Positions 1,646-6,139 of a stretch of 6,139 nucleotides of DNA are shown one piece after another. A model generated the notes under the pieces. The model was not told where the DNA came from. It searched no databases and saw only the letters and a list, made by a program, of their open reading frames with translations. The stretch comes from a virus (Duplodnaviria > Heunggongvirae > Uroviricota > Caudoviricetes), in IMG/VR virus record IMGVR_UViG_2531839449_000026; one strand, written 5' to 3'. How positions within the stretch are numbered: position 1 is the first letter of the stretch; every line of letters starts with the position of its first letter. Made by a program: the position numbers and the translations under genes.

Positions 1646-2534
1646 CGTGTTCACCCTCACGAACTTTCAGGTAGGTATTGTCGTTAAGCAGGAAATCAAA
1701 TCCCTTTTTGTGCCAGACGGTTCCGCGCTGATGGTTTGGGCGCTCTTCGAACATCCATCGGCAATTTTCGCCTACGTAGCTCAAATAATTTCTCCAGTCC
1801 TGCATCGTGAACCCATGCCCGTCAAGCTGGCGGGTTATCACTCCGGCTTTGCGCCAGAACGTTCGGATCTGGTTTTTACGCTTGTCATTCAGTGCGCGGA
1901 TTTTTGGCGCTTCAGGAAGGATTTCGTGGTAAGCATCGACAACATCCTGACAGCTAACGGAAGGTTTTTTCTTGTCAGACTTTTTGTCTGCTGCGGTACT
2001 CTCTAATACGTCAGTATTAGAGATAATATTATTATATTCTTTATCTGTGGTAATTTGCTGGTAATCTGCCGGTACAGTATTGCTTGCAGGCATTGGTATT
2101 GCTGGCTTTGAGGTGGTAATTTGCTGGTAATCTGCTGGTACAAAATTTGACTGATAATCGTCATATTTCTCTACCGAGAAAACTGAGAATTTACCGTGTG
2201 AAACCCAGTCAATCATGCCGAGTTTTTTGAACTTTCTAAGCAGGTACTGAACGCGATCTGGTTTGAGTCCTGTTTCAAACGCCAGAGAGTTTCTACCGCC
2301 AAGTAGCTTCCCTCTGCCTACCAGAATTTCTCCTGCGTCAGTCATTACATACTCAGGCGTATGCTTTGCTTTGAGGATTAAGTGAACCCACAGATGCGCA
2401 GCTTCTGCGTCCTTGTAAAACGGCACATCCATAATTTTACGGTGCAGCAAGGCATACCCCTTACCGCTGCTTTGATGCGGTTGTTGTAGCCTTCTGGCCT
2501 CTCTGGCTTCGGCTAGATTAGATATGTTACTCAT
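1635..2534 (-). CDS. Replication initiation protein, lambda O-like / P22 gp18-like, with origin iterons inside the coding sequence
   Basis: 299-aa ORF immediately upstream of and overlapping the helicase. Its linker region (residues 131-164) is encoded by tandem DNA repeats next to an AT-rich tract, as in the lambda O/ori arrangement. Family assignment rests on synteny (cII - O - helicase) and architecture, not on a search. Confidence 0.75.
2005..2142. other. Putative phage origin of replication: AT-rich tract (about 2005..2046) plus two 30-bp direct repeats (2047..2076, 2113..2142), each made of two 11-bp-phased GGTAATnTGCnGGTA iterons
   Basis: Seen directly: gtggtaatttgctggtaatctgccggtaca at 2047..2076 and gtggtaatttgctggtaatctgctggtaca at 2113..2142 (one mismatch), with a degenerate ggtattgctgg at 2095..2105. 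The flanking stretch agataatattattatattctttatc is AT-rich. In the O-gene transcription direction the iterons precede the AT-rich tract, as in lambda ori. Confidence 0.6.
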
Positions 2535-2673
2535 GACCTTTCTCCTTCTGCATCAGCTTCACTTTTTCCAACTCAGCCCGGAATCGACCAGGCTGCTTGA
2601 AGCTGGACAGGAAGCGATCACGTAGTATGTGTTTGTGAATTTTGTCCTGGTAAGGACTGAGTTGTTTTGTCAT
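2527..2673 (-). CDS. Small hypothetical protein, 48 aa ([48 protein letters not shown]), between cII and the O-like gene
   Basis: Own translation; absent from the ORF track, presumably for length. AGGAG lies 5 nt upstream of the ATG at 2673..2671. The stop at 2529..2527 overlaps the O-like start at 2534, suggesting translational coupling. No family recognised. Confidence 0.45.
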
Positions 2674-2707
2674 AATTACTCCTGTGGATTGATCCAGTCT
2701 TTCTACA

Positions 2708-2986
2708 TCAGGCCTCGAAGAATTCGCCGTTCTTCGGGGCTTTTTCTTTTGTCAGCATTCTGGCTACTTTCTTAGCCAGTTCCGCCAACTCCTCGTCTTC
2801 AACACCCCATTCAAGAACAGCCAGAAGCATTCCCATTTTTGGGATGAAGCTGTCTTTCCATCGCGAAATTTGCGATTCATTAATTCCTAACGCGTCAGCA
2901 ACCTTTCGCTGGCCACGTACAGCAATTCGGTTCAGGATGTTGCTTGTAATTGCATTCGCTTTCTTGCGAGTACTTGTAAGTTGCAT
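2708..2986 (-). CDS. cII: CII-family transcriptional activator
   Basis: 92-aa product aligns with lambda CII as recalled, including the SQISRWK and [10 protein letters not shown] blocks. The 38 bp upstream (2987..3024) match my recollection of the lambda cII translation-initiation region (CATTCAATCAATTGTTATCTAAGGAAATACTTACATATG). Confidence 0.9.
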
Positions 2987-2996
2987 ATGTAAGTAT
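2964..2996 (+). promoter_or_regulatory. pRE-like CII-dependent promoter remnant: TTGC-N6-TTGT at 2964..2977, candidate -10 aagtat at 2991..2996, pointing toward the IS
   Basis: On the strand opposite cII, the tetramer repeat sits at the same distance from the cII ATG as TTGC-N6-TTGC does in lambda pRE (recalled: TTGCGTTTGTTTGCACGAACCAT before the ATG; here TTGCGAGTACTTGTAAGTTGCAT). Its normal target, cI, is missing. Confidence 0.5.
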
Positions 2997-3078
2997 TTCC
3001 TTAGATAACAATTGATTGAATGTATGAACCGCCCCGGAAATCCTGGAGACTAAACTCCCTGAGAAAGAGGTAAACAGG

Positions 3079-3405
3079 ATGACTAAAAATACTCGTTTTT
3101 CCCCCGAAGTCCGTCAGCGGGCGATTCGTATGGTTCTGGAAAGTCAGGATGAATATGACTCACAGTGGGCGGCAATTTGTTCCATTGCCCCAAAGATTGG
3201 CTGTACGCCGGAGACTCTGCGTGTCTGGGTTCGCCAGCATGAGCGGGATACCGGGGGCGGTGATGGTGGGCTCACCAGCGCTGAACGTCAGCGTCTGAAA
3301 GAGCTGGAACGTGAAAATCGTGAACTGCGCCGCAGTAACGATATCCTTCGCCAGGCTTCCGCTTATTTTGCGAAGGCGGAGTTCGACCGCCTCTGGAAAA
3401 AATGA
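3079..3405 (+). CDS. IS629-like transposase OrfA (helix-turn-helix / leucine-zipper subunit)
   Basis: 108-aa ORF with GAGG 8 nt upstream of the ATG. Ends in a leucine-zipper-like [29 protein letters not shown] typical of IS3-family OrfA. Overlaps orfB in the -1 frame. Confidence 0.9.
3397..3402 (+). other. Probable -1 programmed ribosomal frameshift site (AAAAAA run at the orfA/orfB overlap)
   Basis: Six A residues sit just before the orfA TGA (3403..3405), with orfB open in the -1 frame from 3402. IS3-family elements make an OrfAB fusion by slippage on A-rich heptamers (established); the exact heptamer here is inferred. Confidence 0.45.
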
Positions 3406-3914
3406 TGCCACTGCTGGATAAGCTGCGTGAGCAGTACGGGGTCGGACCGGTATGCAGCGAACTGCATATTGCCCCGTCAACGTATTACCATTGTCAGCAA
3501 CAGCGACATCATCCGGATAAACGCAGTGCCCGTGCGCAGCACGACGACTGGCTGAAGAGAGAGATACAGCGCGTATACGATGAAAATCATCAGGTGTACG
3601 GTGTGCGTAAAGTCTGGCGTCAGTTGTTACGGGAAGGAATCAGGGTGGCCAGATGTACAGTGGCACGTCTCATGGCGGTTATGGGACTTGCCGGTGTTCT
3701 CCGGGGTAAAAAGGTCCGTACGACCATCAGCCGGAAAGCCGTTGCCGCAGGCGACCGCGTAAACCGTCAGTTCGTGGCAGAACGACCTGACCAGCTGTGG
3801 GTGGCTGATTTTACTTACGTCAGCACATGGCAGGGCTTCGTCTATGTGGCGTTTATCATTGATGTGTTTGCCGGATACATCGTGGGGTGGCGGGTCTCAT
3901 CGTCTATGGAAACG
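3402..3914 (+). pseudogene. IS629-like transposase OrfB, 3'-truncated (only the first Asp of the DDE triad region is retained)
   Basis: Translation contains DQLWVADFTYV and then leaves the transposase sequence after SSSMET; the ORF ends at 3953 in non-IS sequence (PGRCLRQSRMAQ*). The downstream HHSDKGSQY-type and Glu-bearing regions expected in an intact IS3-family OrfB are missing. Confidence 0.8.
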
Positions 3915-3915
3915 C

Positions 3916-4485
3916 CTGGACGATGTTTGCGGCAAAGCAGGATGGCGCAATGAATACCGCGATATTCCCAACAACGGCGGCGTTGAATGCGGAATATCAA
4001 TAAAGATTGATTCCGAATGGGTAACCAAATGGGATGCTGCTGAAAACACGCAGGTAGAAGCCGTCAAAGGTGGTCGTTCAGGTGCAATGAAGCGTGCTGC
4101 CGTTCAGTGGGGAATCGGTCGGTATCTGTATAACCTTGAGGAAGGTTTCGCACAAACATCTCTCGATAAAAAGCAGGGGTGGCACAGGGCAAAACTGAAG
4201 GATGGAACAGGATTTTACTGGCTCCCTCCATCACTTCCGGGATGGGCAATCCCAGCATCAGATAACAAACCATCACCAGAAAATACCAACCAGAAATCTC
4301 CATCGGTTGACTGCGAACAAATCCTGAAAGACTTCAGCGATTATGCAGCGACAGAAACTGACAAGAAAAAACTCATCGAGCGTTATCAGCGTGACTGGCA
4401 ATTAATGGCTGGCAACGAGGAGGCGCAGGCTAAATGCGTTCAGGTGATGAACATCAGAGTTAACGAACTAAAACAGGAGGCATAA
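3916..4485 (+). pseudogene. Rad52-like (Sak-type) single-strand annealing protein gene, 5'-truncated at the IS junction
   Basis: The frame stays open from the junction to TAA at 4483..4485 and encodes ...GAMKRAAVQWGIGRYLYNLEEGF, which resembles the conserved Rad52/Sak motif (from memory). There is no in-frame ATG with an RBS near the junction. ssb starts right after it (TAAATG), as in phage recombination modules. The only available start is ATG 3844, inside IS sequence. Confidence 0.5.
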
Positions 4486-4998
4486 ATGGGACGTGGAGTT
4501 AATCGCGTAATCATTATCGGTAGATTAGGCCAAGATCCTGAGGTGCGCTATTCACCATCAGGAACGGCATTTGCAAACCTTACAGTTGCTACGTCAGAGC
4601 AATGGCGTGATAAGAAAACTGGAGAGCAAAAGGAGCAGACGGAGTGGCACCGCGTGGTAATGAGCGGAAAACTGGCAGAAATTGCCAGCGAATATCTGCG
4701 AAAAGGCTCTGAGGTTTATCTTGAAGGTAAATTGCGGACAAGAAAATGGCAGGATCAAAGCGGACAGGATAGGTTCACTACAGAAGTTATCGTGGGCGTT
4801 GGTGGAGCCATGCAAATGCTTGGTGGCAAGCAAGGAAGCAATGAACAGTCTTCACCTCAGCGAAATAACGGCCAGCAACAAAGACAGCAATCTCAGCAGC
4901 ATGGGAATTACGGCGAACCACCTATGAACTTCGACGATGAAATCCCCTTTGCACCAGTAACTCTCCCCTTCCCTCGTCACGCTATTCACGCAATTTAA
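4486..4998 (+). CDS. ssb: Single-stranded DNA-binding protein (phage SSB)
   Basis: AGGAGG 5 nt upstream of the ATG. N-terminal OB-fold signature ([22 protein letters not shown]...WHRVV), Gly/Gln-rich linker, and an acidic tip FDDEIPF. Here the tip is followed by 15 further codons ([15 protein letters not shown]) before the stop. Confidence 0.9.
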
Positions 4999-5011
4999 TC
5001 AGGAGAAAATC

Positions 5012-5305
5012 ATGCCAGCGCCTCAGTATGGTGCGGATGACCCGCGCCGCTGTTCCGGCAATTCCGTATCGGAGGTGCTGGATAAATTCAGAAAAAACTA
5101 CGCCCGGATAATGTCGCTACCGCAGGAAACGAAAGAGGAAAAGGAATTTCGCCACTGTATATGGCTTGCAGAGAAAGAAGAGCGCGAGCGAATTTACCAG
5201 ACATCAATCCGACCATTCCGCAAAGCCACATATACCCACTTCCCTGAAATTGACCCGCGCCTGCGTAATTACCGCTCACGCTATGGCGCTATCAGTAATG
5301 ACTGA
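5012..5305 (+). CDS. Hypothetical protein, 97 aa
   Basis: AGGAG 6 nt upstream of the ATG at 5012; tightly packed after ssb in the same operon direction. No recognisable family. Confidence 0.6.
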
Positions 5306-5315
5306 GGAATTTACC

Positions 5316-5483
5316 ATGAGAGGACTTGCATACAATCCCGGCATTCTTCCGGCAGAAATGATTATTCGCCAACGCGTAAAGACAATGCCATCGAGAGAGG
5401 AATTGCTTAAGAGAAATTCTTTTCCGTCAGTGAATCAAAACAAATATCTGAATGCGATGTGGCGTAAAGGAGGCAAGCAGTGA
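5316..5483 (+). CDS. Hypothetical small protein, 55 aa ([55 protein letters not shown])
   Basis: Internal start of the track ORF 5166..5483, chosen because GAGG lies 7 nt upstream of ATG 5316 and the longer form would overlap the previous gene out of frame. Its stop overlaps the next gene's GTG start (GTGA). Confidence 0.45.
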
Positions 5484-5793
5484 GCGAAATTAATTATCAG
5501 GCACTGCGTGAAAAGGCAGAGAAAGCAACTAAAGGAAGCTACATCGTAGGGCATACATCTGTTAACCAGCACGGCAATTTAACAGGAGTTTTTGTTTGCC
5601 AAAAATGGAAAGGAGAACCCGGTGGTGTGATTGCGGAATGTCATGTTAACTGCCTGGTTGAAACAGATGTTCAGGCTTATGCAAACGCTGAATTTATTGC
5701 TGCCTTTAATCCAAATGTTGCGCTGGCGCTTCTGGATGAACGGGAAAGAAACCAGCAATACATCAAACGCCGCGACCAGGAGAACGAGGATAT
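5480..5793 (+). pseudogene. Ead/Ea22-like phage early protein gene, interrupted by IS insertion at 5794
   Basis: GTG start with AAGGAGG upstream. The N-terminus [19 protein letters not shown] matches my recollection of Ead/Ea22-like proteins from enterobacterial prophages. After ...QENEDIE the frame runs into the IS inverted repeat ([14 protein letters not shown], stop at 5840..5842). Confidence 0.55.
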
Positions 5794-6139
5794 TGAACCG
5801 CCCCGGAAATCCTGGAGACTAAACTCCCTGAGAAAGAGGTAAACAGGATGACTAAAAATACTCGTTTTTCCCCCGAAGTCCGTCAGCGGGCGATTCGTAT
5901 GGTTCTGGAAAGTCAGGATGAATATGACTCACAGTGGGCGGCAATTTGTTCCATTGCCCCAAAGATTGGCTGTACGCCGGAGACTCTGCGTGTCTGGGTT
6001 CGCCAGCATGAGCGGGATACCGGGGGCGGTGATGGTGGGCTCACCAGCGCTGAACGTCAGCGTCTGAAAGAGCTGGAACGTGAAAATCGTGAACTGCGCC
6101 GCAGTAACGATATCCTTCGCCAGGCTTCCGCTTATTTTG
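5794..6139 (+). mobile_element. Second IS629/IS1203-like copy, left end (continues past window end), same orientation as the first
   Basis: 346 bp identical to 3025..3370, beginning TGAACCGCCCCGG. Confidence 0.85.
5848..6139 (+). CDS. IS629-like transposase OrfA, partial (3' end beyond window)
   Basis: Same sequence as orfA at 3079; the ATG at 5848 is 54 nt from the IS end, as in copy 1. Confidence 0.85.

Follow-up and report, generated by a model that had tools for sequence, protein, structure and literature searches.

The window analysed in this work, that is, the whole stretch of 6,139 nucleotides, carries on its plus strand two small open reading frames packed between a phage ssb gene and an Ead-like gene, and the question raised by this locus is whether these frames are novel genes or members of known phage systems. 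The first-pass annotation had favoured novelty. It described both genes as matching no family that it recognised and as occupants of a variable accessory slot, and it considered them candidates for an undescribed function. Our overall explanation, which we hold with considerable confidence, is that they are abc2, from a recombination (Rec) module of the P22/HK75 type, and a DUF2737-family gene that follows it, both in the cryptic prophage CP-1639. The identity of both genes, the state of the prophage that carries them, their linkage and the possible role of the second one were studied.

Identity of the two small genes

Both frames were confirmed on the plus strand, at positions 5012-5305 (97 aa) and 5316-5483 (55 aa). 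The Shine-Dalgarno sequence of the first gene, AGGAG at 5001-5005 on the same strand, was read from the sequence 6 nt ahead of its ATG at 5012. The two genes meet at a junction covering positions 5303-5318 of the plus strand, in which the TGA stop codon of the first (5303-5305) overlaps the Shine-Dalgarno sequence GAGGA of the second (5304-5308), and a 10-nt spacer separates the two coding sequences. The second gene starts with ATG at 5316 and ends with TGA at 5481-5483, and this stop codon overlaps the GTG start of the Ead/Ea22-like gene (GTGA, 5480-5483), which runs on the plus strand from 5480 to 5793 (PF13935, E 1e-27). The 55-aa frame can also be read as a longer TTG-initiated ORF at 5166-5483; the extension from 5166 onward is an alternative frame of the 3' end of abc2 and its start is not conserved, the conserved start being the ATG at 5316. 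The gene calls, the ribosome binding sites, the tight packing, the stop-start overlap with the Ead-like gene and the early-left (PL-side) position given in the first-pass annotation are all correct. Judged by their homologues, both frames are real genes and not chance ORFs, because both give full-length Pfam matches, each protein has hundreds of conserved homologues and the dN/dS values with respect to P22 are low (0.17 for the 97-aa gene and 0.12 for the 55-aa gene), which indicates purifying selection.

The 97-aa protein matched PF11043, entitled 'Bacteriophage P22, anti-RecBCD protein 2', along its whole length (residues 1-97 on profile positions 1-97; E 4.7e-62, 206.7 bits for a cut-off of 25) and also phrog_656, 'abc2 anti-RecBCD' (E 3.8e-54). 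In addition, it matched P22 Abc2, chain A of the PDB entries 8B1T and 8B1U, with an E value of 2e-56 and about 90% identity over residues 1-97, and the RefSeq name of the identical protein (WP_001111331.1) is 'phage anti-RecBCD protein'. Within the RecC-bound segment, which covers residues 6-52 in the cryo-EM structure (PMC9836394), the protein of the window differs from 8B1T chain A at residues 31-32 only. The R67-P68 pair is present and is invariant across eight homologues down to 27% identity, and Y87, R90, Y91 and G92 are invariant even in the homologues with 27-30% identity. The high charge of the protein had been pointed out before, and the strings KEEKEFRH and EKEERER are indeed present, both located in helix 2 of the Abc2 fold; the protein as a whole is net basic (pI 9.2, charge +3.7). 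This sequence evidence identifies the 97-aa gene as abc2, which belongs to the canonical genes of the Rec module.

The genes upstream of it agree with this assignment. The phage ssb gene (4486-4998, plus strand; PF00436, E 3.5e-38; phrog_44), another Rec module member, lies directly upstream of abc2 and is preceded by a 5'-truncated pseudogene of the erf/Rad52 strand-annealing type (3904-4485, plus strand), whose product aligned with PF04098 and phrog_1097 only from profile position 44 and which is marked in RefSeq as 'incomplete; missing N-terminus'. The order erf'(Rad52/Erf-like)-ssb-abc2, with no nuclease gene, corresponds to the HK75 functional type of lambdoid Rec module, composed of an anti-RecBCD protein, an SSB and a SAP without nuclease (PMC12315714), and HK75 itself was among the nucleotide matches of the window. 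The PL-side position between ssb and ead was correctly described in the first-pass annotation, but the notion of a variable accessory slot does not hold for the 97-aa gene.

The GenBank record of CP-1639 gives the product of this gene as a 'putative ABC transporter ATP-binding protein'. This possibility was rejected: the protein has only 97 aa and no ABC_tran match, and an ABC ATPase domain has about 200 aa, with Walker A/B and the signature motif. The gene symbol abc2 was apparently misread when this product name was given. The same misannotation has spread to other phage records.

The 55-aa protein matched PF10930 (DUF2737) with its residues 1-51 on positions 1-51 of the 53 of the profile (E 1.7e-30, 105.1 bits for a cut-off of 25) and phrog_1117, labelled as 'unknown function' (E 1.5e-36), and in RefSeq WP_001214463.1 is named 'DUF2737 family protein'. 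Its orthologues are ORF56 of P22, gp23 of Sf6, HkaI of HK620 and orf10 of ST104. P22 ORF56 is 75% identical to it by tblastn and 71% in a MAFFT alignment, and occupies the same position after abc2 in the P22 gene order erf-abc1-abc2-ORF56-eae-eaf-ead. The conserved core of the family, of about 22 aa, has the consensus P-x-[RK]-E-E-L-x-x-R-N-S-F-[PG]-...-N-[KR]-[YH]-L, its invariant part being also written as P-[ST]-R-E-E-L-x-x-R-N-S-F-...-N-K-Y-L, and is represented in the 55-aa protein by P25, E28, E29, L30, R33, N34, S35, F36, N42 and L45; the invariant columns of two family alignments are all present in it. The N-terminal 23 residues, approximately, are variable among the members. By match and by position, the 55-aa gene is a member of the DUF2737/P22 ORF56 family, an assignment that concerns its identity only.

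The 55-aa protein is very basic (pI 11.0, charge +7.5). An AlphaFold2 model obtained with a 27-sequence alignment showed three short helices with low confidence (pLDDT 66.5, pTM 0.27); the Foldseek search of the PDB with this model gave only noise (best E 2.8), and the sequence search of the PDB yielded nothing at E<=10. The remote-homology check that had been suggested for both proteins therefore led to a solved, about 90%-identical homologue for the 97-aa protein, whereas for the 55-aa protein it ended in a low-confidence model with no relative by Foldseek or in the PDB. The NCBIfam scan gave no match for either protein. With PADLOC-DB, the 97-aa protein had only a chance-level match (E 0.042) and the 55-aa protein none, which indicates no membership in the defence systems of that database.

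The DUF2737 family is a small one, restricted to Enterobacteriaceae and the phages that infect them. It comprised 348 clusters at 90% identity in a search of 5.8 billion proteins, 88 clusters at 50% identity, all of short proteins, in an exhaustive HMM search of 1.84 billion representatives, and nine loci among 185,579 species representatives. The six longest matches were considered as possible domain fusions and rejected, none of them being informative: three, with N-terminal extensions, are deletion chimeras formed via the alternative frame of the abc2 3' end, and three, with C-terminal extensions, continue into sequence of the neighbouring genes (DUF7739, DUF551). In the literature searched no function was reported for DUF2737, PF10930, hkaI or ORF56, and the family was not mentioned.

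All these data make it exceedingly improbable that both genes lack a family and are undescribed candidates for some new function in host takeover, anti-restriction or exclusion. What speaks for such a view is that no function of the 55-aa family was published in the literature searched and that the family has no structural match. However, both proteins match curated families over their full length (PF11043 and phrog_656, PF10930 and phrog_1117), the 97-aa protein has a solved homologue with about 90% identity, and the pair is known from P22, Sf6, HK620, HK97-like and Stx phages; neither gene can be taken as an undescribed candidate, since RefSeq already names both. The homology to a characterised family that would speak against novelty was found for the 97-aa protein, which is Abc2, and the 55-aa protein belongs to a family that is catalogued without a reported function. 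The general expectation of a host-takeover function in this region was sound, Abc2 being exactly that. Both genes are already known: Abc2 is well studied, with genetics, biochemistry and a cryo-EM structure (PMC9836394), DUF2737 is catalogued, and the prophage was previously sequenced and annotated. The finding as it had been flagged is consequently of little weight, as it consists of a textbook Abc2 and a catalogued DUF in a known cryptic Stx1 prophage.

Expected action of Abc2 and state of the prophage

According to the structural study of the P22 protein (PMC9836394), Abc2 is an extended helical protein that lies on the Chi-recognition, inactivated-helicase domains of RecC and adjoins the proposed exit channel for the recombinogenic ssDNA loop. 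The helicase and nuclease activities of RecBCD remain largely intact with Abc2 bound, and Abc2 alone barely alters RecBCD in vitro; it is thought to divert the enzyme from RecA loading towards the phage recombinase Erf. Furthermore, Pro68 of Abc2 is placed in the active site of PpiB, a prolyl isomerase of the host that co-purifies with it, and the roles of Abc1, Arf and PpiB are described as unknown (PMC9836394). By extension, the Abc2 of the window would bind RecC and stop RecBCD from responding to Chi and from loading RecA, with the enzyme not blocked, and the ssDNA made by RecBCD would thereby become usable by the phage annealing protein; its Pro68 would engage the host PpiB. We infer RecC binding and the loss of the Chi response and of RecA loading from the identity of about 90% to the protein studied biochemically.

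The prophage in which this gene resides is defective. Positions 3844-5842 of the window matched CP-1639 (AJ304858.2), a cryptic Stx1 prophage from the E. coli O111:H- strain 1639/77, with 100% identity, and the whole window was 99.9-100% identical to O111 STEC chromosomes. The minus strand carries cII, a DUF2740 gene and the O and DnaB-type replication genes. On the plus strand, a truncated IS629/IS1203 copy (3025 to approximately 3914, according to the annotation of CP-1639 and of the O111 chromosome, and to the start of the repeat at 3025) begins 39 nt after the start codon of cII (2986) and takes the place of cro, cI, N, PL and the 5' end of erf. A second IS629/IS1203 copy, in direct orientation and also on the plus strand, occupies positions 5794-6139 and continues beyond the end of the window, its direct repeat being 100% identical to 3025-3324. 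This second insertion cuts the Ead-like gene at about codon 105; in the CP-1639 record the gene is intact and encodes 199 aa. As a result, the array erf'-ssb-abc2-DUF2737-ead' lies between two direct IS629 copies and no longer has the promoter and the antiterminator native to it. The segment is the distal part (erf'-ssb-abc2) of a P22/HK75-type Rec module together with the first gene of the 'ea' accessory region.

With PL and N lost and erf lacking its 5' end, the Rec module in this prophage should no longer be able to work as a recombination system, and abc2 and DUF2737 would be expressible here only by read-through from IS629. The chances are evenly balanced that both genes are now silent, decaying cargo of a defective prophage, whose intactness comes from a recent inactivation and not from selection. 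This would agree with the replacement of PL, N, cI and cro by IS629, with the truncation of erf and the interruption of ead, and with the fact that no sigma-70-like site was found upstream of abc2 and DUF2737 on the plus strand. The O111 copies are also in line with it; as they are 99.9-100% identical, they provide no test of selection. However, the transposase promoter of IS629 could give read-through into erf'-ssb-abc2, and ssb, abc2 and DUF2737 are all still intact. In any case, silence of the two genes would concern their present activity and not their identity, and it is compatible with our explanation of the locus as abc2 in a Rec module of the P22/HK75 type, followed by DUF2737.

Linkage of abc2 and DUF2737 and possible role of the 55-aa protein

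The two genes are found together well beyond this prophage. The phage database contained Abc2 at full length in 224 records and full-length DUF2737 in 221. Among IMG/VR loci, which are closely related within each lineage and whose counts are not independent events, DUF2737 lay downstream in 79 of the 80 found with the Abc2 of the window (the same 10-nt spacer in 63 of these close-type loci, and a single Sf6-gp24-like gene between abc2 and DUF2737 in 15) and in all 79 evaluable loci found with the Stx2a/ST104-type Abc2, which is 60% identical. A distant group of 94-101-aa proteins, reached via Pseudocitrobacter and Pseudescherichia prophages, proved to be homologous to Abc2 over the full length (hhalign probability 97.5%, E 5e-12). 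Within this group, with the same limit on the independence of the counts and with DUF2737 located by domain coordinates in the divergent loci, the gene was present at the same 10-nt spacing in 39 of the 40 loci of subtype B, in 4 of 10 loci of subtype C, with inserted genes, and in none of the 14 of subtype A.

Most linked loci share the 10-nt spacer, and they do so across three Abc2 lineages down to about 30% mutual identity. The junction with overlapping stop codon and Shine-Dalgarno sequence is kept despite differing nucleotides (TGAGGAatttaccATG vs TAAGGAGttaaccATG); the same layout is present in P22, ST104, Stx2a phages, HK629 and S135, and the clade B of Abc2, about 30% identical, has TAAGGAG..ATG. 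The genes immediately upstream of abc2 vary: Abc1 in P22, SSB in this window, HK620-type genes in HK629, and SSB plus a further ORF in S135. The association is not absolute, as DUF2737 is missing in about one of the 80 loci and in CUS-3, and genes of 0.3-1.3 kb can stand between abc2 and DUF2737. Nor do the divergences of the two proteins track each other: with respect to the window, Abc2 and DUF2737 are 60% and 91% identical, respectively, in Stx2a phages, and 92% and 75% in P22.

The junction apparently has a translational-coupling architecture, and since the stop codon of abc2 overlaps the Shine-Dalgarno sequence of the next gene, DUF2737 would be translated in step with Abc2. Taken with its conservation, this layout suggests that abc2-DUF2737 is a stable, translationally coupled two-gene cassette, maintained in Abc2 lineages that share only about 30% identity. 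How deep and how regular this coupling is was not found stated in the literature searched, and the observation is modestly new.

With respect to the role of DUF2737, our proposal is a tentative one. In temperate phages the protein would be made in step with Abc2, and this small, basic and largely unstructured polypeptide would probably fold on a conserved enterobacterial partner via its REELLxRNSF...NKYL core. It may be a self-contained binder of a conserved host factor of enterobacteria that acts in the same early takeover step as Abc2, at DNA ends and in DNA repair, as a complement to Abc2 that is not required for the binding of Abc2 to RecBCD; we regard this as a possibility of clearly less than even probability. 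It is unlikely that DUF2737/ORF56 is, more specifically, an unrecognised component of the Abc2 RecBCD-hijack system, kept in a fixed ratio by translational coupling. If this were true, DUF2737 would provide what is lacking in vitro, where the behaviour of RecBCD is hardly altered by Abc2 on its own, and the candidate activities would be the hand-over of ssDNA to the phage annealing protein or SSB, the blocking of RecA loading, or the blocking of a defence that monitors RecBCD; in Guernseyvirinae, the homologues would in that case act through this core motif on an identical host target, without the aid of Abc2.

It comes close to an even chance that DUF2737 is unrelated to RecBCD and is an autonomous small accessory protein of the 'ea' or nin type with a host target of its own, for example as a modulator of lysis-lysogeny, of cell physiology or of another defence. 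The adjacency to abc2 would then reflect only the conserved lambdoid gene order and the sites of mosaic recombination junctions. DUF2737 does occur alone in hundreds of Guernseyvirinae genomes: about 466 records of these virulent phages carry it without a detectable Abc2, in a small-gene cluster with NinH/NinZ-like genes, and a search with a merged Abc2 HMM and the filters off revealed no Abc2-like sequence in the whole SETP3 genome, in the 5-kb Golestan locus, or in L091 and L093. It is also alone in a Superficieibacter prophage, directly after a replication gene of the lambda P type and with no Abc2. Conversely, Abc2 works without DUF2737, the Abc2-RecBCD complex having been formed and purified without ORF56 (PMC9836394), and the 14 loci of Abc2 subtype A dispense with it. 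The tolerance of insertions between the two genes and the lack of covariation between their allele divergences point in the same direction, as does the position of ORF56 as the first gene of the P22 ea region; in the survey of lambdoid Rec modules, the DUF2737 gene was not counted as a module member (PMC12315714). Against a chance neighbourhood of this kind, the adjacency and the stop/Shine-Dalgarno overlap are kept between Abc2 clades that are only about 30% identical, the pair is kept behind unrelated upstream Rec genes, and its persistence exceeds the synteny usual in the mosaic early-left operons of lambdoid phages. What remains of the probability, beyond action in the same step as Abc2 and a role unrelated to RecBCD, is left to other possibilities.

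Two further ideas on DUF2737 were considered and rejected. One was that F36-P37 could be a second PpiB site like P68 of Abc2; it is not such a site, because many members of the family have Gly at this position. The other was that the Abc2-linked members of DUF2737 have an N-terminal half of their own; the clade-B Abc2-linked proteins have a Guernseyvirinae-like N-terminus.

The mechanism of Abc2 is still incomplete and P22 ORF56 is a candidate additional player; as the abc2-DUF2737 cassette is stable and apparently coupled, ORF56 is a cheap and well-motivated target for deletion.

Comparison with known systems

Inhibitors of the acidic DNA-mimic type (lambda Gam, T7 gp5.9, Ocr, ArdA) were considered for both proteins and rejected, both being net positive and matching none of these families; specifically, Abc2 of the window is not an acidic DNA mimic, because it is net basic. 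Abc2 has in common with lambda Gam and T7 gp5.9 its target, RecBCD, and its purpose, namely the protection of phage DNA ends and the favouring of phage recombination. [quoted passage not shown] Abc2 is related to these two inhibitors neither in sequence nor in fold.

The closest known counterpart of the 97-aa protein is P22 Abc2. Both have 97 aa and are about 90% identical, with a nearly identical RecC-binding segment (residues 6-52), and the protein of the window keeps Pro68, the PpiB site, and the C-terminal RxYxxRYG motif. The comparison with the PDB chain gave ten substitutions (Q5L, A31D, R32L, S65A, H76K, P78I, N86D, G92A, A93G and D97N). In both cases abc2 occupies the distal end of a Rec module within the PL operon, with the same small gene after it. 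In contrast to P22, abc2 of the window is preceded by ssb and not by abc1, which corresponds to a module of the HK75 and not of the P22 type, and it resides in a defective prophage without PL and N and with a truncated erf.

Regarding the 55-aa protein, the DUF2737 proteins of Guernseyvirinae (gp58 of the Jerseyvirus SETP3 and gp71 of the Kagunavirus Golestan), of 51-53 aa, are about 70-75% identical to it in the core (residues 24-51), whereas the 23 N-terminal residues are unrelated. Their genes belong to a late/early small-gene cluster with NinH/NinZ-like genes, with no Abc2 or Rec module nearby. Finally, P22 ORF56, Sf6 gp23, HK620 HkaI and the HK97 gp38-like protein are of equal length and 71-98% identical to DUF2737 of the window and share its core motif; in the window the gene lies, as in these phages, 10 nt after abc2, and there is no substantive difference between it and these known members of the family.

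IS629 copies and the lost immunity region

The segment that carries the truncated erf gene, ssb, abc2, the DUF2737 gene and the truncated ead gene is flanked on both sides by direct copies of IS629/IS1203. The first of these, truncated in orfB, occupies positions 3025–3914 of the window, and the second, in direct orientation relative to it, lies at 5794–6139. The second copy is missing in the GenBank record of the cryptic prophage CP-1639 and in most O111 chromosomes, where ead is uninterrupted, and the window is therefore a variant that carries an additional IS insertion or is the product of an IS-mediated rearrangement. At the boundary of the first copy (window 2986–3079), the cII start codon is found at 2986 and IS629 begins 39 nt further, at 3025. 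The entire cro-cI-N-PL immunity region is absent from the window and, as a consequence, its early-left genes are without their native promoter or antiterminator.

In addition, the interval that separates cII from the O-like replication gene contains a gene of the DUF2740 family (48 aa; 2527–2673, minus strand), a further conserved small lambdoid gene with no assigned function.

Naming and divergent homologues of Abc2

In older GenBank records, such as AJ304858.2 (L001, 6988–7281) and that of phage g341c (gene 28), abc2 is labelled as a putative ABC transporter ATP-binding protein. This is an error in which the gene symbol was mistaken for the ABC superfamily. Other records name the product as a DUF2856 family protein.

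A divergent clade of proteins of 94–101 aa, with about 30% identity to P22 Abc2, was also found (IMG/VR loci L104–L165; L092, 2395–2691; L094, 1363–1662). The L094 protein, the single member scanned against Pfam, did not match PF11043 at E≤0.1. The comparison of the clade with Abc2 by hhalign gave a probability of 97.5%, the homology being clear, and the clade retains both R-P at the position of Pro68, the residue engaging host PpiB, and the C-terminal RYG.

Two records look like contamination with enterobacterial phage DNA or mislabelling: OR850339.1 ("Staphylococcus phage SA 1298 Kay", 1698 bp), encoding a 91%-identical Abc2, and the Bacteroidota assembly of Taishania pollutisoli (contig NZ_JACVEL010000022.1), whose DUF2737 gene is 94% identical to gp58 of Salmonella phage SETP3.

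Loss, duplication and interruption of the DUF2737 gene

Relatives with a degraded or missing DUF2737 frame are rare. In phage CUS-3 (L099, 2487–2581) residues 28–54 alone remain, in the unannotated gap after hkaJ/abc2, and the IMG/VR locus L048 is without the gene, which is therefore dispensable, at least in some phages. In the metagenomic DUF2737 proteins P0121 and P0124 the conserved core (PTREELMKRNS...) occurs as two tandem internal copies, which would fit a role of the core as a short modular binding motif or else assembly artefacts. Finally, the DUF2737 gene of phage HK629 harbours an endonuclease gene inside its 3′ end, and the part coding for the DUF2737 C-terminus (residues 31–54) is repeated beyond the endonuclease gene (L097, segments 2501–2650, 2664–3242 and 3215–3286), an arrangement that looks like a homing-endonuclease-type insertion regenerating its own target.
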